Positions 29,918 through 63,497 of a stretch of 64,000 nucleotides of DNA are shown here, piece by piece. The translations under genes and the position numbers were made by a program. Position 1 is the stretch's first letter; each line of letters opens with the position of its first letter. Below the pieces are notes generated by a model that was not told the DNA's origin, did not search any database, and worked only from the letters and a program-made list of their open reading frames with translations. Source of the stretch: Vicinamibacterales bacterium (GTDB lineage Bacteria > Acidobacteriota > Vicinamibacteria > Vicinamibacterales > JAMQPK01); the NCBI GenBank assembly GCA_963732445.1, contig CAVSZJ010000003.1:1143639-1207638 (forward strand). Direction: 5' to 3'.

Positions 29918-30915
29918 ATGACGACGTTCCTCCTCCGCAGGTTTGCCTATACGGTATTGCTCGTCATCATCGCCACATCGGTCGCCTACGTGCTGGCAGC
30001 GACGCAGCTCAACCCGCGGTCGCGCTACGAAGGACGCAACCCTCCTCCGCCGCCGGAGGTGGTCGACGCTGTCCTCGACGCGCTGAACATGAACGACAGG
30101 ACGCCGCTCGTGGATCGCTTTGGCCGCTGGGCGGGAGGCGTCGTCCGCGGCGACCTCGGGCGGACCGTCGACAACACGTCGGTCAACGAGGAGATCGGCC
30201 GCCGCATGTGGGTGAGCCTGCGGCTGGTGCTGATCGGCGCGTTCGTCGGCACCAGTCTCGGCGTCGCCGCCGGCGCCTACAGCGCCGTCAAGCAGCATCG
30301 TCCCGTCGGACCACTTCGTGACGGTCTTCTCATTCGTCATCCTCTCGACCCCGGTCGTGGTCCTCGCGGTCCTGTTCAAGAACGCCGGCATCGCGCTGAA
30401 CGACGCGCTCGGCTTCACCGGCGATACCAAGCTGCTCTACACGACCGGTGAAATCACGCCGGGCCTCGAGTTCTGGTCGTGGGACGGGCTCGTCGACCGC
30501 GCCGCCCACCTCGTCCTGCCGTCGCTCGTCCTCATTACGATCGCGGTCGCGTTCTACGGGCGCTATCAGCGCAACGCCATGCTCGACGTGCTCGGCAGCG
30601 ACTTCCTGCGCACCGCGCGGGCCAAGGGACTGCGGCGATCGCGTGCGCTCGTCAAGCACGGGCTTCGCACGGCGCTCATCCCGATGGCGACGTTCTTCGC
30701 GTACCAGTTCGCGCTGCTGTTCGTCGGCGCCACGTTCACCGAGCAGATCTTCGGCTGGCACGGCATGGGCGAATTCTTCGTCGACTCGATCACCAAGAAC
30801 GACGTGAACTCGGTGGCCGCCGTCACGCTCTTCGTCGCCGTGCTCGTGCTCATCGCCGGCTTCCTGTCCGATGTCGCCTACGCGGCTGCTCGATCCACGC
30901 GTGCGCACCTGACGT
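29918..30915 (+). pseudogene. ABC peptide/nickel-type transporter permease (DppB/OppB-like), frame changes near 30305 and 30885
   Basis: N-terminal MTTFLLRRFAYTVLLVIIATSVAYVL. EAA-loop region DFLRTARAKGLRRSRALVKHGLRTALIPM. The C-terminus reads AYAA | LDPRVRT only after a shift. Confidence 0.8.
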
Positions 30916-30916
30916 G

Positions 30917-31849
30917 ATGTCCTCACTGCCGGAGCCCGAGAGAGCGCATCGGCAATCGTCCAGCCGCCGGCCGTTGTCGAGCCTGCATCGGCGGACGAAG
31001 CGACGTCACGGTGGACGCTCGTGCGCCGCCGCATGTTCCGCACCCGGCGTGCGGTGGTCGGCCTCGTGCTGGTCCTGCTTGCTGTTCGCGCTCGCCTACC
31101 TGAGCCCGTACTTCGTCATCTGGCAGTACAACGAGCTCGACACCAGGCGTTCCTGTCGCCGCCCGTCGGCCGACCACTGGTTCGGCACCACGCAGAACGG
31201 CTTCGACATGTTCGCGCTGACGATGAGGGGGATGCAGAAGTCGCTGATCATCGGGCTGCTCGGCGCGCTGATTTCGACGTCGCTGGCGGCGGTGGTCGGG
31301 TCGTTCGCCGGTTACTTCGGCGGCAGGCTCAACACCGTGCTGCTGGTGCTGGTCGACCTGCTGCTGGTGCTGCCGGCGATTTCTCATCATCGCGATCCTG
31401 TCACCGGCGTTCCGCGGTCGCACGTGGCTGGTCTTCGTCGTGCTGCTCTCGGTCTTTCACTGGATGGTGACCGCGCGCATCGTGCGCGGGATGACGCTGT
31501 CGCTGAAGGAGCGCGAGTTCGTGCAGGCAGCCCGCTTCATGGGCGTGCCGGGATGGCGCATCATCTTCCGCCACATTCTGCCGAACATGTCGTCGCTGCT
31601 CATCATCGACGCCACCGTCAACGTGAGCGCACTGATTCTCGCGGAAGTCGGGCTGTCGTTCTTCGGCTTCGGCGTGCAGCCTCCCGACGTGTCGCTCGGT
31701 ACGCTGATCGGCAACAACGCGAACGCCGCTCTCACGTATCCGTGGCAGTTCTACTTTCCCGCCGCATCGCTCGTCGTCCTGGTGCTGTCGATCAATCTGG
31801 TCGGCGACGCCCTCGCGAGCGTGATCCGCACGCCTCGACCGGACGCAAT
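30917..31849 (+). pseudogene. ABC peptide/nickel-type transporter permease (DppC/OppC-like), several frame changes
   Basis: Pieces in three frames: AVVGLVLVLL, ADHWFGTTQNGFDMFALTMRGMQKSLIIGLLGA, and VFHWMVTARIVRGMTLSLKEREFVQAARFMGVPGWRIIFRHILPN. The end is approximate. Confidence 0.75.
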
Positions 31850-33925
31850 GCCGCCGCTCCACTTCTTGACGTCGAAGACCTCTCGGTCACGTTTCGAAGC
31901 GAGGCCGGCGACGTCGCCGCGGTGCGCGGCATCTCGTATCAGGTACGGGCGGGCGAAGTGCTGGGCATTGTCGGGGAGTCGGGGTCGGGCAAGTCGGTCT
32001 CGTCGCTGGCGGTTATGGGTCTGCTGCCGGCGAATGCGCGCGTGACGGGAGCGGTTCGCTTTCGCGAGCGCGACCTGGTGGGGTTGAGCGATCGCGAGCT
32101 GTCGGAGATTCGGGGCCGGCGCATCTCGATGATTTTCCAGGATCCGCTGTCGGCGCTGACGCCCGTCTACACCGTCGGCGACCAGATCGCCGAGGCCGTT
32201 CTGGCTCACAACGACGTGACGCGGCAGGCGGCGCATGCGCGGGCCGTCGAGCTGCTGACGCTCGTCGGCATTCCGAACGCCGGGCGGCGGGCGTCGGCGT
32301 TTCCGCACGAGTTTTCGGGCGGCATGCGGCAGCGCGTGATGATTGCGATGGCGATGGCCAACCAGCCCGACGTGATCATCGCCGACGAACCGACGACCGC
32401 GCTCGACGTCACCATCCAGGCGCAGATTCTCGACGTGCTCAGGACGGCCAAAGAGGCGACCGGCGCGGCGGTCGTGCTGATCACGCACGACCTCGGTGTC
32501 GTCGCCGGATTCGCCGACCGTGTGGCGGTGATGTACGCAGGGCGCATCGTCGAAATCGGCGATGTCGACGACGTGTTCTACCGGCCGCGGATGCCGTACA
32601 CACTGGGATTGCTGGGATCGATTCCGCGGCTCGACCTCGGACGCAGGCAGCGTCTCACGCCAATCGATGGCAACCCCCCCTCGCTCGTTCACCTGCCCTC
32701 GGGATGCCCGTTTTGGCCGCGGTGCCCGCTGCGCATCGAGAAGTGTCAGCAGCTGGAGCCCGCGCTGCTGCCGATCCAGGGACACGACCCGTCGCATCTC
32801 GCGGCGTGCCACCGCAGCGATGAAATCGAACAGCGGAAGATGACGAGCGCCGACATTTTTCCTGCGCAGTCGCAGCCGGCGGAGGCCGACGCGGCGTCGC
32901 GGGATACGCGCACGACGATGCTCGCTGTCCGGGACCTCGTCAAACATTTCCCGCTGCTGAAGAAGGGGATGATGCGGCGGCGCATCGGCACGGTGCACGC
33001 GGTCGACGGCATCAGCTTCGACATCCGCGAGCGCGAGACGCTGGGGCTGGTCGGCGAGTCGGGCTGCGGCAAGACGACGGCCATCATGGAGATTCTGAAC
33101 CTCGTCAAGCCGCAAGCCGGGACCATCGTCGTGCTCGGACACGACACCGTCGCGCTCACGCCGAGTGAGCGGTTTGCGATCCGCCGCGACCTGCAGGTGG
33201 TATTTCAGGATCCGCTCGCGTCGCTCGATCCGCGCCTGCCGATTGGCGACATCCTGGCCGAGCCGCTCGAGACGCACGGCGTGGCGCCGGCCGACCGTGC
33301 TCGCCGCGTCCGCGAGCTGCTGACGCTTGTCGGCTTGCAGCCGGAGCACGCCAACAGATATCCGCAGGCGTTTTCCGGAGGACAACGACAGCGCATCGGC
33401 ATCGCGCGCGCGCTCGCGCTCGAGCCGAAGGTGGTCGTGCTCGACGAGCCCGTATCGGCGCTCGACGTCTCCATTCGCGCCGGTATCATCAACCTGCTGG
33501 AGGAGCTGCAGGCGTCGCTTGGTTTGTCCTACCTGTTCGTGGCCCACGATCTCTCGGTGATACGACATATCGCAGACCGGGTGGCGGTGATGTATTTGGG
33601 GCGGTTCGCCGAAATCGGCGGAGTCGACGAGGTCTTCGAACGGCCGGCGCATCCGTATACGCAGGCGCTGCTCTCGGCCATTCCGCTGCCCGATCCGCGC
33701 AAAGAGCGCCAGCGGCGGCGGATCGTCCTGGAGGGGGACCTTCCCAATCCGGCCGATCCGCCGTCAGGGTGCCGGTTCCGCACGCGCTGCCAGAAATTTG
33801 CCCACGAGCTGACGGACGAGGAGCGCGCGCTCTGCCTCGAGCAGCATCCGCCGCTTCTGCCGCGCACCGGCGGTTCGGACCATCTCGACGCGTGCCACTA
33901 CGCCAGCGCCGAGGCAATGCTATAA
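31850..33925 (+). CDS. fused double ABC ATPase (DppD/OppD + DppF/OppF in one polypeptide)
   Basis: Two Walker A motifs (GESGSGKS, GESGCGKT), two signatures (FSGGMRQR, FSGGQRQR) and two Walker B motifs (IIADEPTTALD, VVLDEPVSALD). Both oligopeptide C-terminal Cys motifs are present. No start codon is visible at the junction with the permease, so the start is approximate. Confidence 0.85.
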   Translation, partial: AAAPLLDVEDLSVTFRSEAGDVAAVRGISYQVRAGEVLGIVGESGSGKSVSSLAVMGLLPANARVTGAVRFRERDLVGLSDRELSEIRGRRISMIFQDPLSALTPVYTVGDQIAEAVLAHNDVTRQAAHARAVELLTLVGIPNAGRRASAFPHEFSGGMRQRVMIAMAMANQPDVIIADEPTTALDVTIQAQILDVLRTAKEATGAAVVLITHDLGVVAGFADRVAVMYAGRIVEIGDVDDVFYRPRMPYTLGLLGSIPRLDLGRRQRLTPIDGNPPSLVHLPSGCPFWPRCPLRIEKCQQLEPALLPIQGHDPSHLAACHRSDEIEQRKMTSADIFPAQSQPAEADAASRDTRTTMLAVRDLVKHFPLLKKGMMRRRIGTVHAVDGISFDIRERETLGLVGESGCGKTTAIMEILNLVKPQAGTIVVLGHDTVALTPSERFAIRRDLQVVFQDPLASLDPRLPIGDILAEPLETHGVAPADRARRVRELLTLVGLQPEHANRYPQAFSGGQRQRIGIARALALEPKVVVLDEPVSALDVSIRAGIINLLEELQASLGLSYLFVAHDLSVIRHIADRVAVMYLGRFAEIGGVDEVFERPAHPYTQALLSAIPLPDPRKERQRRRIVLEGDLPNPADPPSGCRFRTRCQKFAHELTDEERALCLEQHPPLLPRTGGSDHLDACHYASAEAML

Positions 33926-38465: not shown

Positions 38466-39467
<1,002 letters not shown>

Positions 39468-39541
39468 TGTGCACCGGGATGTTCGGTTCAGCTCCACGAT
39501 GCGTTTAAGCAGTCACGGAGATCGGTCAGAGTGAGGCGAAC

Positions 39542-41599
39542 ATGCCACCAAAGATCCCGCAAGAAACGCTGAAGAAGCTCCACCCCAAGCTGCGGATGAT
39601 CACCGACGGCGATGGCACCGTGAACATCCTGCGGTCCGAGCGCGCCGCGGCTCTCGCGGTCGAATCGCCGGCCACGATCAAGAAGGTCAAGGAATACCGG
39701 AGAGCCGACACGGTCCCCGTGGCGATCGAGGATCTCGACAGGAAGCCCCGCAAGCCGAAGGCGCTGAAGCACATCACGGGCGCGGTGCGCGCGAACGTGT
39801 TCGTCTACCTGCGAGACCCCAGGGTCGAGACACCCGACGTCGATCGCCCGACATGCCGCAAAGGGGAGATCCTTCAGGTGCAGGCGCCGCTCGACGAGAT
39901 TCCGGCCATCGCCGGCAGGCCAGGGGTGACCTACGTCGAGATCGCGCAGACGCTGAGCACACCGGTGGTGACGACCGCGGATGCGGCGCCGTCAGCGCCA
40001 GCCTCGAGCGAGCGGCGTTTCGGATCCGCCGCGCAGCACAAGTTCGGCCAGGACATTCTCATCGGCATCATCGACGTCCAGGGTTTCGACTTCAGCCATG
40101 CGGATTTCCTGGACGAGGCCGGCAGGACGCGCTTCGTGCGCATCTGGGATCAGGGCGGCGACGCACGGCCGTCTCCAAACGAACGAGACCCCTTCTTCGA
40201 CACGCAGTTCGAGTACGGCGCCGAATTTCAGGACGTCGATCTCAACAAAGCACTGGGCGCAGCGCCCAGGCTCGGCCTGCCTCCCACCGACATCGAACGG
40301 CAGTCACAGCGCGCGGAGAATTCGCACGCGACGCACGTCGCCAGCATCGCCGCCGGCAATCGCGGCGTCTGCCGCCGCGCGAAGATCGCCGGCGTCCTCA
40401 TTTCGCTGCCGGCCGAGGACCAGGACAAGCGGTTGTCGTTCTACGACTCGAGCCGGCTTGCCGACGCCGTCGACTACCTGCTGCGGCTCGGGCAGAAGAT
40501 GGGACTGCCGGTGTCGATCAACGTGAGCCTTGGCACGAACGGTCATTCGCATGACGGCAGCGCTGCGGTCACGCGCTGGATCGACGCCGCGCTTGCGGCG
40601 CCCGGCCGTGCCGTCACCGTCGCTGCCGGCAACTCGGGCCAGGAGAAAGGGGAAACGGAGGACGACCTCGGTTGGATCATGGGGCGCGTCCACGCGAGCG
40701 GCGCGTTTCCTGCCGCCGGGCTCGAGCAGGATCTCGAGATGGGTCGTGGTCGGCAACGGCATCATGGACCTGTCCGAGAACGAGCTCGAGATCTGGTACA
40801 GCGCCCAGGATCGGCTTGCGATTTCGATCAAGCCGCCGAACATGGACTGGATCGGCCCGATCGAGCCGCGTGAGTTCATCCAGAACCGTGTGCTCTCGGA
40901 CGGCACCGTGTTGAGCGCCTACAACGAGGTATTCCATCCGGCCAACGGGCTCAACTACATCAGCGTGTACCTCAGCCCGTTCCTGCAGCCGCCGCAGGTC
41001 ATTGGTGTCGCGGCCGGCACGTGGACCGTGCGGCTGCATTCGCGTGAAGTGCGCGACGGGCGGTATCACGCGTGGATCGAGCGCGACGACCCGCAGCGGC
41101 TCGGACGCGTCGGCGAACGCGAGGCGTGGTCGTTTCCGTCGTTCTTCACGGAGCGATCGCTGGTGGACGACACGCACCGTCAGCTCGCTCGGATGCGGCA
41201 GCCGCGTGATCACCGTCGCCAATCTCGATGCGGTTCGCAATCAGATCAGCATCACGAGCAGTCAGGGCCCGACGCGTGATGGACGCGAGAAGCCCGACAT
41301 CGCGGCGCCGGGCACCAATATCGTTGCCGCCAAAGGTTTTTCGGGCGACCCGAATGCAGTGGCTCGGGTTGTCGGGCACCAGCATGGCCAGTCCGCTCGT
41401 CACCGGCGTCGTCGGACTGATGCTCGCGATCGAGCCGCAACTCACCGCCGCCCAGGTCGAATCGATTATCCGGCGCACCGCGAAACCGCTGCCGGGCGCG
41501 AGCTTCACGTGGTCGAACGCCGCCGGGTTCGGCGTGATCGATCCCGAGGCGTGTCTCACAGAGACCTCGCGGCTCAACGTCAGAAAGGATTTGGGCTGA
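39542..41599 (+). pseudogene. S8 (subtilisin-family) serine peptidase without signal peptide; frame changes near 40739, 41175 and 41355
   Basis: Asp IGIIDVQGFD, His NSHATHVASIAAG, oxyanion Asn AAGNSG and Ser LSGTSMASPLVTG, recovered by joining ORFs 39542..40873, 40530..41279, 41002.. and 41228..41599. The N-terminal 180 aa are hydrophilic and unassigned. Confidence 0.8.
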
Positions 41600-42877
41600 T
41601 GCGTCTCACTGCCTTCCAATCGGACAAGGGCGATTGCCTGCTGCTCACGGACACCTCGGGCACGCGGCGCATTCTGGTCGACGGCGGCATGCCGGCTTCC
41701 TACAAAGCGCACGTCGCGGCGGCGATGGGCAAGCTCGGCGCCGCGAAGGCGGCGCTCGACGTCGTCTACGTCTCGCACATCGACCAGGACCATATCGGCG
41801 GCGTCCTGACGATGCTCGACGACGAGGCGGACTGGCGCGTGCACGAGTTTCAGAAGAAGAACAAGAACACGAAGAGCAAGCCTCCGGCGGTGGCTCGGCC
41901 GCCGAAGGTCAAGGAGATCTGGCACAACGCGTTTCACGAGCAGTTGAAGGACAATGCCGGGCCCATCGAGGACGCGCTGGCCGCCGTCGCGCCGATGCTG
42001 AGTGGCTCCGACCTCGCGAAGATCCGCGACGAAGGCCTCAAGCAGTCCGACCTCGATCACGAGCATCGCCGAGGCGATACAGGTCTCGCGGCGCATCTCG
42101 CCGAAGCAGCTCAACATCCCGCTGAATCCGCGATCGGACGGCAAGCTGATGATGCTGCGCAAGAGATCAGAAGCCCATCAAAATCGGCGATCTGACGGAT
42201 CACGATCATCGGGCCGACTGCCAGGCAGCTCGAAGGAGCTGCAGGACGAGTGGAACACGTGGCTTCGGAGCGCGGAAGGGAAAGCCCGCCTCAAGAAGCT
42301 GGAGGATGCCGCGCGCCGCGACGAGGAAGCGCTCGGCGCGTCGGAGTTCGACAGCCTGATGTCATCGCTCCGCCTGCAGGCAGAGTCGTTCGGCGATCCC
42401 AATGCCGTGACCGCTCCGAATGTCGCGTCGCTCACGCTGCTCGTCGAGGACAATTCGTCATCACTGCTGCTCACCGGCGATGCACGTGGCGACCACATCG
42501 TCGACGGCCTGAAGAGCGCCGGCCGCCTGAACGGCGGCACGTTCGAGGTGGATGTGCTCAAGGTCCCGCATCACGGATCGAAGAACAACATCGATTCCGA
42601 TTTCGTCGAGACCGTCATTGCCCGCGACTACGTCTTCTGCGGCAACGGCTTGCATCGACAATCCCCATCTCGAGGTTATCGCGATGATGTTCCGGCGGCG
42701 CCTTGCCGGCGAGTCAGAAGCCGTTCCGCTTCTGGTTCAACAGCAGCAAGGACGTCTCCGTCGAAGCCGCAACACATGGCCCAGGTCGAGACGCTCGTGA
42801 AGAAGCTTGCCAAGACCGGCAAGGGACGCTTCACGTTCGAGTTCCTGACGAAGGGCAGTACGATGAAGATCCTGTGA
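41599..42877 (+). pseudogene. MBL-fold metallo-hydrolase, ComEC/Rec2-type; at least four frame changes
   Basis: The ATG at 41599 shares its A with the TGA of the S8 gene. Motifs DKGDCLLLTD, VYVSHIDQDHIGG, LLLTGDA and VLKVPHHGSKNN. The pieces join as IAEAIQVSRR..., IKIGDLT/ITIIGPTARQLE, ELQDEWNTWL, DNPHLEVIAMM and KPFRFWFNSS. Confidence 0.75.
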
Positions 42878-46730: not shown

Positions 46731-47639
46731 ATGGCTGAGCTTTCCAGGCGCGAGTTCGCCGCCCTTGCCGGCGCTGCGGCGGCCGTGCCGTTCGTATGCG
46801 CCAGAACGTTGTCCGCGGCGGCAGCAATCACGGCAGAGCAGGTGATTGAGCGCATCAAGAAGAACATCGGTTCTGAGTGGAAACTCGACTCAGTTGATAC
46901 CGTCAAGGCCGGTGATCCGTCCACGGTTGCCACGGGAATTGTCACGACCTCCATGGCGACGCTGGCGGTACTCCAGCAAGCCGTGAAAGCCGGCGCGAAC
47001 ATCATCATCACCGCACAGCCCACGTTCTACGCGAGGGCCGACGTGACGACTCCGCCCGCAGGACGCGGTGGCGGCAGCCAGGCGCCTGCGGATCCTGTTT
47101 TCACGGCCAAACACGCGTTCATCACGCAAAACAAACTCGTCATCTTCCGCCTGAGCGATCACTGGCGGCAGCGTCGGCCGGATCCGTTCGCCGAGGGCCT
47201 CGCGACTGCGCTGCGCTGGTCGAAGTATCGGTCCGCGGGCGATCCCGAGCGCTTCGAAGTACCCGCGCTCAGGCTCGACGCCCTGGCGAGCAATCTAAAA
47301 AACGGCCTTCGGTCGAGAGGCGGCATCCGGGTTGTCGGTGTTCCCGGAACGCCGGTCCGGCGTGTCGGGCTGCTGCCCGGCACCACCTCGATTCATGCGG
47401 CGTTGAACATGCTGCCGAGCGTGGACGCGATCGTCGCGGGGGAAGTGCGCGAGTGGGAGTCTGTCGAGTACGCGCGAGACATGGTTTTCTCGGGCGGGAA
47501 GAAGGGATTGATTCTCGTGGGCCGGGTGGTTTCGGAGGAGCCCGGCATGGCCATCTGCGCCAGCTGGCTGAAGACGTTCATCTCCGATGTGCCAATCCGG
47601 CATATCTCTGCCGGCGATCCCTATTGGAGACCGTCGTGA
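46731..47639 (+). CDS. Nif3-like (DUF34) protein with twin-arginine signal; metal-ligand positions substituted
   Basis: Tat motif SRREFAALAGAAAAVPFV. NIF3-like GIVTTSMATLAVLQQAVKAGANIIITAQPTFY. The residues aligned to the His of the downstream paralog are TAQ, HWRQ and GRV. Confidence 0.65.
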   Translation: MAELSRREFAALAGAAAAVPFVCARTLSAAAAITAEQVIERIKKNIGSEWKLDSVDTVKAGDPSTVATGIVTTSMATLAVLQQAVKAGANIIITAQPTFYARADVTTPPAGRGGGSQAPADPVFTAKHAFITQNKLVIFRLSDHWRQRRPDPFAEGLATALRWSKYRSAGDPERFEVPALRLDALASNLKNGLRSRGGIRVVGVPGTPVRRVGLLPGTTSIHAALNMLPSVDAIVAGEVREWESVEYARDMVFSGGKKGLILVGRVVSEEPGMAICASWLKTFISDVPIRHISAGDPYWRPS

Positions 47640-48427
47640 ACGCAGGGGACGTTGTCGACCGCATCAAGAAGAATCTCGGCGTGCCCTGGCGCGATACCAC
47701 GTATCGGGACACCTTCAAGTTTGGTGCACCAGACACCGAAGTCCTCGGCATCGCGACGACGGTGTTCTGTTCTTTCGAGGTCGTCCAAAAGGCGAGTGCG
47801 GCGGGATGCAACATGATCATTCCGCACGAAGTTACCTACTGGAGCGATCGCGACGACATCGCGATCGTCAGTCACGAACCGCTCTATACGGCGAAGGCCG
47901 ATTTCATGCGGCAGCACAACATCGTCGTCTTCCGCATCCACGATCACATGCATGCGCAGCGGCCCGACTTCACCTACGTTGGCTCGGCGCGTGATGTCGG
48001 TCTCGACGCGAAGTATGAGACCGCGCCAAACTCGCACCGGTTCATCGTTCCGGAAACCACGCTGGGAGCGCTGGCTGCGGACGTGAGAGCACGTACGGGA
48101 GCGCGTGCACCGAGAGTCGTTGGCGATCCCAACGCCAAGGTGAGCCGAATCCAGCTCGGTGTCGGCTACGCGACGCCTGCCATCAACAACCCGGACGTCG
48201 ACGTGGTCATCAGCGGCGAGCAGCAGGAGACCGACGGTACGCTGGACAGTCCCGAATATGTCCTCGACGCGGTCACACTTGGTATGAACAAAGGGTGGAT
48301 CATGCTCGGCCACGCGATCTCGGAAGAGGCGGGCATGCTCGAAATGGCGCAGTGGATCAAGGGATTCGTCCCGGAATTACCGGTTCAACTGGTGAAAGCG
48401 GGGGAGCCGTTCTGGGCCCCGAGGTGA
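47636..48427 (+). CDS. Nif3-like dinuclear metal centre protein (paralog)
   Basis: The GTG start overlaps the upstream stop (GTGA). GIATTVFCSFEVVQKASAAGCNMIIPHEVTYW, FRIHDHMHAQ and IMLGHAISEEAGM keep the NIF3 His/Glu pattern. Confidence 0.7.
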   Translation: MNAGDVVDRIKKNLGVPWRDTTYRDTFKFGAPDTEVLGIATTVFCSFEVVQKASAAGCNMIIPHEVTYWSDRDDIAIVSHEPLYTAKADFMRQHNIVVFRIHDHMHAQRPDFTYVGSARDVGLDAKYETAPNSHRFIVPETTLGALAADVRARTGARAPRVVGDPNAKVSRIQLGVGYATPAINNPDVDVVISGEQQETDGTLDSPEYVLDAVTLGMNKGWIMLGHAISEEAGMLEMAQWIKGFVPELPVQLVKAGEPFWAPR

Positions 48428-59636: not shown

Positions 59637-59746
59637 TTTCTTCCGTCTCAACCAAACAGTTGGCTTGGAATCTCGGAAGCGCGCCGCCGCGACTGTGTCA
59701 GTCGCGGCGGGCACGAGACGTGCGCGATATGAACAGCGAGGAAAAG

Positions 59747-62700
59747 ATGCGTATGCAAAAGGGATTTTGGGCGCTGCTCTTGATGTGCACCCTGGCGGCG
59801 ATGCCGGCCTGGGCGCAGGAGACTCGAGGCAATATCAACGGCATCATCCAGGACGCTCAGGGGGTCATTCCCGGGGCGACCGTACGAATTACCAACACCG
59901 AAAACGGTCAGACGCAGTCGCTCATCACGAACGAGACGGGCTACTTCGAAGCGCCATTGCTGCAGCCGGTCCGTATCGCGTGTCGGTCGAAATGCCGAAT
60001 TTCAAGACGCTCAACCAGGACGTGGTGCTCAGCGTCGGCCAGACGCTCAGCGTGAGGCTGACGCTCGAAGTCGGCAACGTGACCGAGACCGTCAACGTCA
60101 CGGCCGAGGCGCCGATCCTCGACACGACATCGGTGTCATCCGGACAGAACTTCGATCGCGCGCTCATCGAGGGTCTGCCGATGGCGGCGAACCAGCCGAT
60201 CCTGCTCTCGAAGTTCGCGCAGGGCATCATCGGGCCCGACCACGCAGCAGCTCGTGCTTCAGGGACAGATCGACGGCCCGAACGACGGCGCCGGCGATCC
60301 CGATCGGCGGCGTCGGCAGCTTCAACTACACGATCGACGGCGCGACCAACGCCGGCAACAACCGCCGCATGTCGGCGTCGCCGAACTCCGACATGATTCA
60401 GGAGATGCGCGTCGAGACGTCGAACTTCGATGCATCGCAGGGACACGGCACCGGCGCCAACATCTCGCTGATGACCCGCGCGGGCACGAACCTCGACGCG
60501 CGGCACGGTCAACTACCAGTACTGGACCAACCAGATCAACTCGCTGAACCCGCAGCAGAAGCTGGCGTTCGGGCAGCGTCCCGAGACCGGCGAGCTCTAC
60601 AACACCGGCCACTCGCACAACGTCGCGTTCACGCTCGGCGGCCCGGTCGTCCTCCCGAAGATCGTGAACGGCCGCAACAAGCTGTTCTACTTCTTCAACT
60701 ACCAGCGGAACTACGACGACTCGGCGGCGCGGAACACGCCGACGATCGACGGTTCCCGCGAACGCGAAGCACCTGGACGGCGACTTCTCGGACCTGCTGA
60801 CGCTGGGCAGTCCCGGGCAGTATCAGATTTACGATCCGCTGACCGTGCGGCCCGATCCCGCGCGGCCGGGTAGCTTCATCCGCACGCCGTTCCCCGGGCA
60901 ACATCATCCCGAAGGATCGGTTCATGAACGCGAACGGCACCTACAAGAACCCGCTGTTCGCGCTCTACAGGGACATGATCCCGGCGCCGAACCAGAACTT
61001 CGTCGAGCAGGGGGCGATTCCGACCGAACAACTACTACCAGGGCGGCGTGCCGAACCTGACGAACGCGTCGAACTTCGGCGGCCGCGTCGACTTCAACGC
61101 GTCGCGAGAAGCGACCGCTTCTTCTTCCGGTACGCCGGCACGACGTTCCACGAGCAGCTCGGCGACTGGACGTACGAATCGCCGAATCCGAAGTATCACG
61201 GCATGCACGTCAACGACAAGACGCGCTACTCGTGGGCCTACACGGGCAACTGGACGAAGGTCACAGGGTTCGAGCGTGTTCGACACGCAGTTTTCGGCCA
61301 ATCGCTTCTTCGAAGATCAGCAGCGCCGGGGCCTGCACAAGTACAAGCCGACCGACGTCGGTCTTCCGAGCTACCTCGACGAGTTCTGCAGCGCGGTGAA
61401 CAACTGCATGATGCCCGTCATCAAGTCGGCGGCATACCAGGGCGTCTCGAACGACTGCCGACGGCGGCGCTCGACGCCACGCACGTCCAGGCGCAGAGCA
61501 ATCGTGACGAGCGTCAAGGGCGACTCACACGCTGCGCGGCGGCGTCGACTACCGCCTGGCGATGCGCCGGAACGAACTGATCGCCGGCGGCAACGTGTCG
61601 TCGACGTACACGTTCGACAACACGTTCACGCGCGCGGCCGATACGACAGCCGTGTTCCCGGCCAGCAACATCGGCCCGAGTCTCGCGGCCCTCATGCTCG
61701 GGCATTCCGACGTCAGGTGTCGATCGGGCAGAACGCGCCGATCTCGATGAGCAACCCGTACTACGGCGGGTTCTTCCAGGACACGTGGCGCGCCACGCAG
61801 AACCTCACGTTGAACTTCGGTCTCCGGTACGAGTTCGAGGACGGTATCACCGAAGCCGAGGATCGCTGGATCACCGAGTTCGATCCGGATGCGCAGCTGG
61901 CGATTACGCAGCTCGCGCAGGCGGCGTACGCGCGGAGCCCGATTCCGCAGGTGCCGGTCAGCGAGTTCCGCGTGCTTGGCGGCTCGGTGTATGCCGGCGC
62001 CAGTCGCGATCCGGGCAAGACCTGGAAGGGCGAGTCGCATGTGGATGCCGCGTGCTCTCGACCGCCTACAAGCTCGGCGAGAGAACGGTCATCAAGGCGC
62101 GGGTACGGACTGTTCTTCGACACGTTGAACGCCGGCCGACTACCACGACTGCTCAACCAGCTCGGCTACACCTCGGCGACGACCAACGTGGCGAGCACCG
62201 ACTTCGGCCAGACCTGGCTTCTTGGGCGATCCGCAGGAACGGCGTCCTGCCGATTGTCGAATCCGTTCCCGGTGCGCGCAACGGCACCCGATTCGAAGCC
62301 GGCGCTGGCGGATTCGCTCGGCGCGAACGCCATTCTCGGGTCGACCTTCAATCGCGAGAATCCCGAACCGCAAGCACGCGCGCGTGAACCGCTGGAGAGT
62401 CGGCGTGCAGCGCGAGCTGTTCGGCAACATGTCGGTCGAAGTCGCGTATGCCGGCATGTATGCGGATCGCGTCGACATCGCACGATTCAGCAGAGTCCTA
62501 CATCCCGGAGTCGTACTACAGCAACGTCACCGAGCCGCGACGCGTCGGCGCAGACGCTGCTGCAGCAGCAGGTCACGAATCCGTTCCACATCGACAACTT
62601 CGCGTCGCTGAGGACGTCGGATCCGGTGCTCTATCAGCGCATGGCGAACAACGCGTTCTTCCAGGCACGGACGACGCAGCGGCAGAACCTGATCCGCGCG

Positions 62701-63497
62701 TATCCGCAGCTCAGACGGCAAACGCGAATCCGTGCAACAATGCGCTGCTATTCAACAACCTGCCGCTCGGCGTGGTCAAGGCGCACTCGCTCGAGGTGAC
62801 GGTCAACCGCCGCTACTCGAACGGCCTCAGCGCCAACCTCGCGTTCTCGGCGAACAGCGTCACGGAGAATCGGGTCGGTCGAAGCGTACGATCGCGAGCC
62901 GACGTTGTGGCAGCCGAGCCAGGACGCGCGGCCGTTCCGCATCACCGGCGGCGCGGTGTACGAGCTCCCGTTCGGCAGCAACAAGGCGTTCCTGAACGAG
63001 GGCGGCGTCGCCGCCAACATCCTCGGCGGATGGCAGACGGGCGGCACGTTCGAGTATCAGCCGGGCGCGATGCTCGACTTGGGCAACGACGTGTTCTTCA
63101 ACGGCGACCTCGGACGACATCGCGAAGGACAATCCGGAGATTGCCCTGCAAGCGCGACGGCACGCTCGATCAGTCGAAGTACTGGTTCAACACGGAGAGG
63201 CTTCGTGAGGCCCGCCGCGCTTGCAGCCGGCGTCGTTCCAGAAGCGCGCGTTCCCGTTCCGCGTCGACGACGTGCGCGGCCCCGGGTTCTTCCTGGTGAA
63301 CGCGAACGTCGTCCGGAACTTCCGCATCGGCGGCGGCCGGTCGCTGCAGTTCCGCCTCGACGTGCAGAACCTGTTCGACGCGGTGCTGTGGCAGAATCCG
63401 GAACGTCAACCCGACCAGCACGAACTTCGGGAAGGTCACGGGCGCGACGAACAGCATCATGCGGTTCTTCACGTTCGTCTGGAAGGTGAACTTCTAA
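59747..63497 (+). pseudogene. very long TonB-dependent receptor with CarboxypepD_reg-like N-terminus; more than ten frame changes
   Basis: Signal peptide MRMQKGFWALLLMCTLAAMPAWAQE. GIIQDAQGVIPGATVRITNTENGQ...TNETGYFEAPLLQPGPYRVSVEMPNFKT. Barrel pieces are found in all three frames up to the C-terminal ...NSIMRFFTFVWKVNF. Confidence 0.75.

Follow-up and report, generated by a model that had tools for sequence, protein, structure and literature searches.

On the forward strand of a 64,000-nucleotide stretch of DNA from a Vicinamibacterales bacterium (Acidobacteriota; GenBank assembly GCA_963732445.1, contig CAVSZJ010000003.1, positions 1,143,639 to 1,207,638; hereafter called the window), positions 39542-42877 hold a gene for an S8 subtilase directly followed by a gene for a protein of the metallo-beta-lactamase (MBL) fold. 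The two genes form a recurrent, translationally coupled module. Judging from sequence, the pair very probably belongs to the subtilase clade of protease-activated MBL pro-nucleases, and the overall picture, which we consider probable, is that of a self-contained two-gene cassette in which the protease would activate a latent nuclease. That this serves against phages is a further step, which we propose with less confidence. A preliminary description of this DNA had suggested a candidate conflict or defence module; the coupling, the cytoplasmic protease and the nuclease-type MBL protein on which it built were borne out, but the novelty of the system, its analogy with IetAS and an enrichment beside defence genes were not.

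MBL proteins of the same family have recently been described as pro-nucleases whose active site is blocked by two linker insertions. A partner protease, activated when its fused sensor detects infection, cuts both insertions, at I133/S134 and I232/S233 in VcMBL, and the cut three-piece protein is a Zn-dependent, non-specific double-stranded DNase (Tuck et al., Science 2025, PMC12799240; Evans et al., bioRxiv 2025, PMC12642450). In VcMBL, the D276A mutation abolishes DNase activity. The phylogeny of these MBL proteins splits into trypsin-like, caspase/CHAT and subtilase (S8) clades (Tuck et al., PMC12799240, fig. S2; Evans et al., PMC12642450, 'Clade 3'); the statement in the preliminary description that no S8-plus-MBL system had been described is thus outdated. 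The experiments covered the trypsin clade (Hachiman, Avs1, Avs2 and Avs4) and the caspase clade (Canu) only (PMC12799240, PMC12642450), and our literature search found no paper testing the subtilase clade. The latter, already recognised bioinformatically, is the one major branch outside these experiments, and no sensor is recognisable in it.

We determined how consistently the two genes occur together by scanning one genome per species, which yielded 80 subtilase loci, 77 of them with enough downstream sequence. The MBL gene is directly downstream of the subtilase gene in 77/77 informative loci, and it directly follows in every metagenome contig inspected as well. The hosts comprise Acidobacteriota (Vicinamibacterales, Pyrinomonadaceae and Edaphobacter modestus DSM 18101), Chloroflexota, Actinomycetota, Planctomycetota, Gemmatimonadota, Verrucomicrobiota, Pseudomonadota, Bacteroidia and others, i.e. 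about ten phyla. Stop and start codons overlap in 58 of the 68 non-redundant pairs (45 of the ATGA and 13 of the TGATG type). The recurrent adjacency that the preliminary description had proposed to look for is therefore a property of the family. The two proteins also co-vary, with a mirror-tree correlation of pairwise distances of r=0.74 over the 68 pairs that none of 999 permutations reached; this value shows co-inheritance and does not in itself prove physical interaction. The catalytic residues of both proteins are conserved across homologues. All-versus-all clustering of flanking open reading frames (ORFs) identified no conserved third gene, the most recurrent family being present at 9 of ~80 loci, and the commonest Pfam family among 107 sampled immediate neighbours is MFS (6/107).

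The boundaries of the cassette are sharp: nucleotide homology between the window and an independent intact relative (L090) starts at 39529, 13 nt before the subtilase ATG, and ends at the MBL stop. Rhizobium and Sinorhizobium carry the pair on large plasmids as well, of which many are conjugative; intact examples are GYN07_RS30470/RS30475 on Rhizobium leguminosarum 248 pRle248d and RS34290/RS34285 in Sinorhizobium meliloti RRI128. On the Sinorhizobium meliloti plasmid pRRI128_5 (L088 943-19842), it is flanked by IS66, an XendoU endoribonuclease with a lamin-tail domain (XendoU-LTD) and hypothetical genes, and two split ORFs together match PADLOC TmtA of Tiamat (4e-48 and 4.5e-102). These surroundings look like an accessory or defence-type region, the sole such case among the copies inspected.

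In the window, the coordinates and quoted motifs of both genes in the preliminary description proved accurate, and we mapped them to codons. The A of the subtilase TGA is also the first base of the MBL ATG (TGATG), as had been noted; 9 nt before this ATG, still inside the 3' end of the subtilase gene, is an AAGGA motif. The layout is as follows.

39533..39536, forward strand: GAGG Shine-Dalgarno-like motif, 5 nt before the subtilase ATG, read from the sequence
39542..41599, forward strand: S8 subtilase gene, ATG at 39542 and TGA at 41597-41599; 684 residues after removal of three inserted bases
41585..41601, forward strand: translational coupling signal, AAGGA at 41585-89 within the subtilase 3' end, then TGATG at 41597-41601
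41599..42877, forward strand: gene of the MBL-fold putative pro-nuclease, ATG at 41599 and stop at 42875-77; 423 residues after removal of seven inserted bases

The MBL protein matches Pfam Lactamase_B (1.7e-8) and has more than 2500 homologues in a large protein collection. The preliminary description had assigned it to the ComEC nuclease type, rightly so: the beta-lactamase-like domain of ComEC (9ic4) is its best solved match both by sequence (1.4e-8) and by fold (5e-10), and the protein is in addition homologous over its full length to anti-phage effectors. Among PADLOC models, it matches LmuA (PDLC03854, 1.2e-49, residues 1-384), Avs1a (6e-29) and RTasMBL (1.6e-27). Its best NCBIfam match is Avs1a (3.4e-37), with 128 bits against a cutoff of 420 bits. 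Aligned by hhalign to the Avs1a annotated on Cupriavidus necator pHG1, the MBL protein reached a probability of 99.7% (E 5e-27) over 346 columns with 28% identity. Between its N- and C-terminal halves, the fold accommodates ~130 more residues than that of ComEC. No signal peptide or transmembrane-like hydrophobic stretch was found in its sequence. The AlphaFold model (mean pLDDT 79, pTM 0.80) is confident outside residues 113-149 and 239-272, where pLDDT is below 50. These two segments, which we consider candidate gating loops, match the relative positions of the two cuts in VcMBL.

41776..41793, forward strand: metal-binding H60-x-D62-x-D64-H65 (SHIDQDHIGG; ComEC-type HxDxDH), at least 95% conserved in 68 loci
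41935..42045, forward strand: insertion or loop 1, residues 113-149, candidate gating loop, pLDDT below 50, with conserved L127 and L134-S-G
42317..42418, forward strand: insertion or loop 2, residues 239-272, candidate gating loop, pLDDT below 50, with conserved [L/F]263-G264-x-R266
42479..42481, forward strand: Asp293 (LLLTGDA), metal-bridging Asp, invariant
42569..42574, forward strand: His323-His324 (VPHHGS), invariant, aligning to KVPHHGS of ComEC

The HxDxDH motif is invariant in the homologue alignment (A2) and aligns to HPDADH of ComEC. We suspect that Asp293 is the counterpart of D276 in VcMBL. In loop 1, L127 is conserved in 66/68 sequences and L134 in 63/68, L134 being followed by S/A-G; in loop 2, the corresponding figures are 61/68 for [L/F]263, 64/68 for G264 and 58/68 for R266.

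The other protein matches Pfam Peptidase_S8 (8e-29) and has more than 2100 homologues in the same collection, the best of which are 88-90% identical and 684 residues long. It is predicted to be cytoplasmic because it has no N-terminal hydrophobic segment. In agreement with what had been noted before, we detected no signal peptide or transmembrane segment: the maximal 15-residue Kyte-Doolittle mean is 0.75 in the first 75 residues, and no 19-residue window exceeds 1.6. The solved proteins closest to it are the clostridial Csp germination proteases (7e-32), and profile alignments that match chains of the CspA/CspC type in a single stretch (query 168-625 to chain 97-493) cross an all-beta insertion that is the equivalent of the Csp jelly-roll.

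The preliminary description had counted about 180 unassigned residues at the N-terminus. This holds for the first ~80, which match nothing; the remainder sits, by position, where Csp-type subtilases carry their prodomain. A profile of the N-terminal 172 residues gave chance-level matches only against PDB and Pfam, and the CspC/CspA profile alignments begin at query residue ~127 and chain residue ~50, inside the Csp prodomains. Residues 83-134 are probably a prodomain, judging only by position and by the secondary structure in the AlphaFold2 (AF2) model, in which a low-confidence linker follows (residues 136-169). The columns of the N-terminal motif listed below are invariant or nearly so in the family alignments (A1, A4).

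39542..39787, forward strand: N-terminal extension, residues 1-82, with conserved motif K12, P15, L17-R18-M19, N28 and R31
39788..39943, forward strand: probable prodomain-like beta-beta-beta-alpha-beta unit, residues 83-134 (AF2 secondary structure, pLDDT 65-82)
40073..40075, forward strand: catalytic Asp178 (IGIIDVQGFD), invariant in 24 homologues
40325..40327, forward strand: catalytic His262 (NSHATHV), invariant in 24 homologues
40631..40633, forward strand: oxyanion-hole Asn364 (AAGNSG), invariant in 24 homologues
40676..41090, forward strand: all-beta insertion in the catalytic domain, residues ~379-516 (strands only in the AF2 model)
41381..41383, forward strand: catalytic Ser613 (GTSMASP), invariant in 24 homologues

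Comparison with published systems places the pair closest to the protease-MBL modules named above. It shows three features of the subtilase clade, namely homology of its MBL protein with the defence MBLs, an adjoining operonic S8 gene and co-variation of protease and nuclease. The modules of the trypsin clade (HamM and trypsin-HamA in Hachiman; Avs1a/Avs1b; Avs2- and Avs4-MBL; Lamassu and DRT variants) have an MBL protein that is homologous over its full length and likewise combines a ComEC-like core with two flexible insertions, to which the two candidate loops correspond in position, and an adjoining, co-varying serine protease gene. However, their protease has a trypsin fold, is fused to a STAND, HamA, SMC or RT (reverse transcriptase) sensor and is encoded downstream of the MBL gene, whereas here a stand-alone S8 protein of 684 residues with no NTPase is encoded upstream. 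In Canu (CanABC; Tuck et al. 2025), the protease gene is likewise upstream of a homologous gated MBL gene, and the protease is stand-alone with no fused sensor. The gating insertions of Canu carry conserved glycines, to be compared with L134-S-G and [L/F]263-G264 here. Canu differs by its caspase/CHAT cysteine protease, its Ig-like and TPR partners and a third gene, canB, whereas the present protease is a serine enzyme of family S8 with no conserved third gene.

The Csp proteins (CspB, CspA and CspC) share with the subtilase the position of the N-terminal prodomain and the beta-rich jelly-roll insertion in the catalytic domain. Csp proteases cleave pro-SleC, a latent hydrolase zymogen that they activate by site-specific cuts, and the subtilase would act on its MBL partner in a similar manner. 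The signals to which Csp proteins respond are small-molecule germinants, within a developmental pathway, and not phage. The subtilase differs from them by its presence in non-sporulating phyla, its extra N-terminal extension of ~80 residues and its partner, an MBL nuclease rather than a cortex lytic enzyme. It scores far below the NCBIfam cutoffs for CspBA/CspC (100 vs 1250 bits and 78 vs 675 bits) and is not a member of that family.

IetAS, which the preliminary description had offered as an analogue, has in common with the pair a cytoplasmic S8 protease and a two-gene defence-type operon, but the partner here is a nuclease-type effector. It is not the nearest system, the trypsin-MBL and caspase-MBL (Canu) modules being closer: the subtilase has only a generic PADLOC 'subtilase' match and none to IetS, and no AAA ATPase gene adjoins it. 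The C-terminal nuclease domain of ComEC/Rec2 shares the HxDxDH and KVPHHGS motifs with the MBL protein. The latter is nevertheless soluble, lacks the membrane competence domain as well as any hydrophobic segments and has the insertions of ~130 residues; it matches TIGR00361 with 37 vs 190 bits, and there in the C-terminal MBL part only. Assignment to AVAST type 1 (Avs1a/Avs1b/Avs1c) was likewise rejected, given the sub-cutoff Avs1a score mentioned above and window flanks with no STAND or trypsin gene. The same holds for Lamassu (LmuA and LmuB SMC with or without LmuC), as there is no PADLOC match in the ten flanking genes and no recurrent SMC gene in the ~80 loci.

On the basis of these likenesses, we propose the following mechanism. 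The MBL protein would be made as a latent zymogen, with the flexible insertions at residues ~113-149 and ~239-272 blocking the active site, while the subtilase would be held inactive, its own prodomain being the probable inhibitor as in Csp and other subtilases. A trigger, plausibly phage infection, would activate the subtilase, and relief of its own prodomain may be a step in this activation. The subtilase would then cut both MBL insertions. Plausible cutting points are directly behind L134 and [L/F]263, conserved hydrophobic residues that suit the P1 preference of subtilases. The three-piece MBL protein would become a Zn-dependent, non-specific nuclease of double-stranded DNA, and the infected cell would be arrested or killed, as in abortive infection. 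Three parts of the subtilase are candidate sensors: its conserved N-terminal extension, its prodomain and its jelly-roll insertion. A tentative, rather doubtful extension of this scheme is that the Csp-like subtilase is itself the sensor, through one of these three parts and with no NTPase, so that the pair would form a nuclease death switch whose signal need not be phage. On this same, equally tentative reading, the switch would share mechanism and ancestry with the germination proteases of clostridia. If true, such a death switch would occur widely among soil Acidobacteriota and rhizobial plasmids.

Both genes of the window are interrupted. The several frame changes reported in the preliminary description amount to exactly ten one-base insertions, three in the subtilase gene and seven in the MBL gene, and they look technical rather than a sign of gene death. 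They were identified by alignment to two intact relatives: L001, a JGI metagenome contig taken as the closest intact relative (86% nucleotide identity), and L090, a second and independent one (89% nucleotide identity), which placed the same ten sites within ~3 nt. Against L001, the window has no deletions, longer indels or nonsense substitutions. Deletion of the ten bases restores uninterrupted ORFs for 684 and 423 residues, the lengths of the best homologues (88-90% identical). After correction, the ratio of non-synonymous to synonymous substitutions (dN/dS) against L001 is 0.10 for the subtilase and 0.20 for the MBL protein, with no stops. Exact-protein look-ups with the beta-helix protein, the aldo/keto reductase and a 443-residue subtilase fragment, and two pattern scans of metagenome DNA that tolerated the inserted base, returned no copy of this contig or of a near-identical strain. 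Each of the extra bases below corresponds to a one-base gap in both L001 and L090.

40739, forward strand: extra base 1 (subtilase gene)
41174, forward strand: extra base 2 (subtilase gene)
41359, forward strand: extra base 3 (subtilase gene)
42055, forward strand: extra base 4 (MBL gene)
42165, forward strand: extra base 5 (MBL gene)
42197, forward strand: extra base 6 (MBL gene)
42235, forward strand: extra base 7 (MBL gene)
42653, forward strand: extra base 8 (MBL gene)
42708, forward strand: extra base 9 (MBL gene)
42761, forward strand: extra base 10 (MBL gene)

Several observations weigh against the proposed cassette of protease and gated nuclease. Cleavage, DNase activity and a phage phenotype in the S8 clade would be extrapolations from the trypsin and caspase clades. 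Both MBL loops carry conserved hydrophobic-Gly motifs, but their role as a cover of the active site is that of a model-based candidate. The AF2 model of the subtilase, built from 23 similar sequences, is poor (mean pLDDT 54, low in the N-terminal extension), which makes the prodomain assignment and any geometry of a complex tentative. No sensor domain of the STAND, SMC, helicase or RT type is fused to or adjoins the pair within ~10 kb in the window, and none recurs beside it in the ~80 loci. With no match to PADLOC models in the ten flanking genes, the locus in the window does not qualify as a defence island. Contrary to the expected enrichment beside known defence genes, no recurrent defence family was found next to the pair, with no PADLOC family present more than twice among the 107 immediate neighbours; this is weak negative evidence, as the ORFs were chosen heuristically and had no matched background. 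These neighbours are mostly housekeeping or metabolic genes. One example comes from Blastocatellia-type Acidobacteriota, where yebC and ruvC enclose the inserted cassette and yggS-yggT-yggU lie upstream (L017 6984-13984; also L020, L027, L033, L035 and L061). No relatives were found in the 2.9 million viral contigs of IMG/VR. Conservation in the family is unusually high (65-90% identity among many soil Acidobacteriota) and purifying selection is strong, which is atypical for fast-evolving defence genes. Finally, most of the ten insertions lie outside homopolymers. Nanopore errors typically fall in homopolymers, and insertions elsewhere are atypical for them. This last point, together with the three and seven frame breaks and the intact state of both direct neighbours, would fit the view that the insertions are real and both genes dead here, leaving a decaying remnant with no current function. 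We consider this unlikely and assembly or sequencing error the likelier explanation, because all ten changes are single-base insertions, dN/dS against the nearest intact relative is low, unrelated genes of the window (ABC permeases and a TonB-receptor-like gene) are frame-broken too and the same pair is broken in other long-read-style assemblies. Natural decay of pseudogenes yields mixed changes and is usually biased towards deletions. Frame breaks in this window should not be taken as pseudogenisation without read-level support.

Another view accepts that the subtilase licenses a latent nuclease but gives it a purpose other than defence, such as self-destruction in stress or development, DNA turnover or an addiction-type selfish cassette. 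The absence of a defence-island signal among the 107 immediate neighbours, the housekeeping surroundings such as yebC/ruvC, the high conservation under purifying selection, the lack of an NTPase-type sensor and the response of the closest protease relatives, the Csp proteins, to germinants all speak for it, and stress-response roles for protease-effector modules have been raised (Evans et al., PMC12642450). We nonetheless find it improbable, to about the same degree as gene death: the MBL relatives studied by experiment (in Hachiman, AVAST and Canu) all act as anti-phage effectors, the distribution across phyla is patchy, the cassette has sharp boundaries and travels on conjugative plasmids, and one copy adjoins IS66 and Tiamat-like genes. 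There is still less to be said for an MBL protein that is not gated by the protease at all but is a phosphodiesterase of small molecules or cyclic nucleotides, or some other hydrolase, the subtilase having a separate substrate. Close MBL homologues have a weak precomputed Pfam match to Anti-Pycsar_Apyc1, an MBL cyclic-nucleotide phosphodiesterase, yeast PDE1 is among the structural matches (E 1e-3), and the candidate status of loop occlusion leaves room for this view. However, the better matches to the ComEC nuclease domain, the ComEC-type metal motif and the full-length homology to Avs1a, whose family is a proven double-stranded DNase zymogen, make it quite unlikely, and strict operonic coupling with co-variation argues for a direct relationship of enzyme and substrate. 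It is very improbable indeed that the pair is a detached piece of the Lamassu 'hydrolase-protease', AVAST type 1, DRT or IetAS systems, with a sensor gene elsewhere or lost. The best PADLOC matches of the MBL protein (LmuA, Avs1a and RTasMBL) would suit such an origin, but no STAND NTPase, trypsin gene, SMC/LmuB, reverse transcriptase or IetA ATPase gene is found within ~10 kb in the window and no such sensor gene recurs in the ~80 loci, the Avs1a score is far under the NCBIfam cutoff, and these named systems use sensor-fused trypsin-like proteases rather than S8 enzymes, with no IetS match here.

The licensing of nucleases by proteases has only lately been recognised as a logic of bacterial immunity, parallel to the caspase-activated DNase of animals. 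Our analysis shows that the S8-MBL pair forms a horizontally mobile cassette, strictly conserved and coupled in translation, in at least ten phyla, that its protease is Csp-like, and that both loops offer concrete candidate cleavage sites. Some of its hosts can be cultured and are amenable to genetics (Rhizobium and Sinorhizobium, on plasmids, and E. modestus DSM 18101). The trigger and any immune role of the pair are thus directly testable. A sensor-less pair with a Csp-like protease, a weak defence-island signal and culturable hosts makes a good experimental target.

The direct neighbours of the pair in the window are, as had been described, an aldo/keto reductase gene (AKR, 38466-39467) and a beta-helix protein gene, both with intact ORFs. 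We considered the AKR as a partner, as an AKR gene is also upstream of the pair on R. leguminosarum pRle248d (L087 7740-8771). The two AKRs are just 31% identical and none adjoins the pair in the other ~80 loci; the arrangement is probably a coincidence. The genes that recur beside the cassette in Blastocatellia were also considered and set aside as housekeeping genes (yggS, yggT, yggU, yebC and ruvC). The surrounding ~10 kb of the window code for a hemerythrin, a Leu/Phe-tRNA protein transferase, an alpha/beta-hydrolase, a DUF378 protein, an epimerase-SRPBCC fusion, NIF3 and an FGGY kinase. A promoter and terminator scan of the locus yielded nothing useful.

Other genes with disrupted frames were observed in the window and elsewhere. 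DppB/DppC-like ABC peptide permease genes (29918-32050) are frame-broken: residues 115-195 of a related permease from another Vicinamibacterales contig (L004) align in frame 2 (31184-31465) and residues 200-317 in frame 3 (31425-31775), and the first of the DppB/DppC-like genes switches frame near 30300. A CarboxypepD_reg/TonB-dependent-receptor-like outer-membrane gene (59735-63400) needs at least eight frame hops to be read, mostly +1, which are further evidence of clustered indel errors, or of decay, in the window. ORFs 46731-47639 and 47453-48427 overlap, and both match NIF3/DUF34 in different parts of the profile; this may reflect a further gene with a broken frame or else two genes in tandem. 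The ORFs of the S8 or MBL protein are also split in L009 (12037-13321), L016 (10001-12053) and L086 (10001-13234), which are long-read-style assemblies (Microflora Danica MFD bins and an ENA 'contig_' assembly), and the genes are intact in short-read contigs.

Two further loci came up in the comparisons. About 6 kb upstream of the pair in the Vicinamibacterales contig L004 (1-4476), genes for a CHAT-TPR protein, a sigma-70 factor and a second S8 peptidase constitute another conflict-type protease locus. The Avs1abc comparator on C. necator pHG1 (L089 3450-15289) adjoins an AAA ATPase and helicase pair and a restriction endonuclease, a typical defence island unlike the contexts of the S8-MBL pair.

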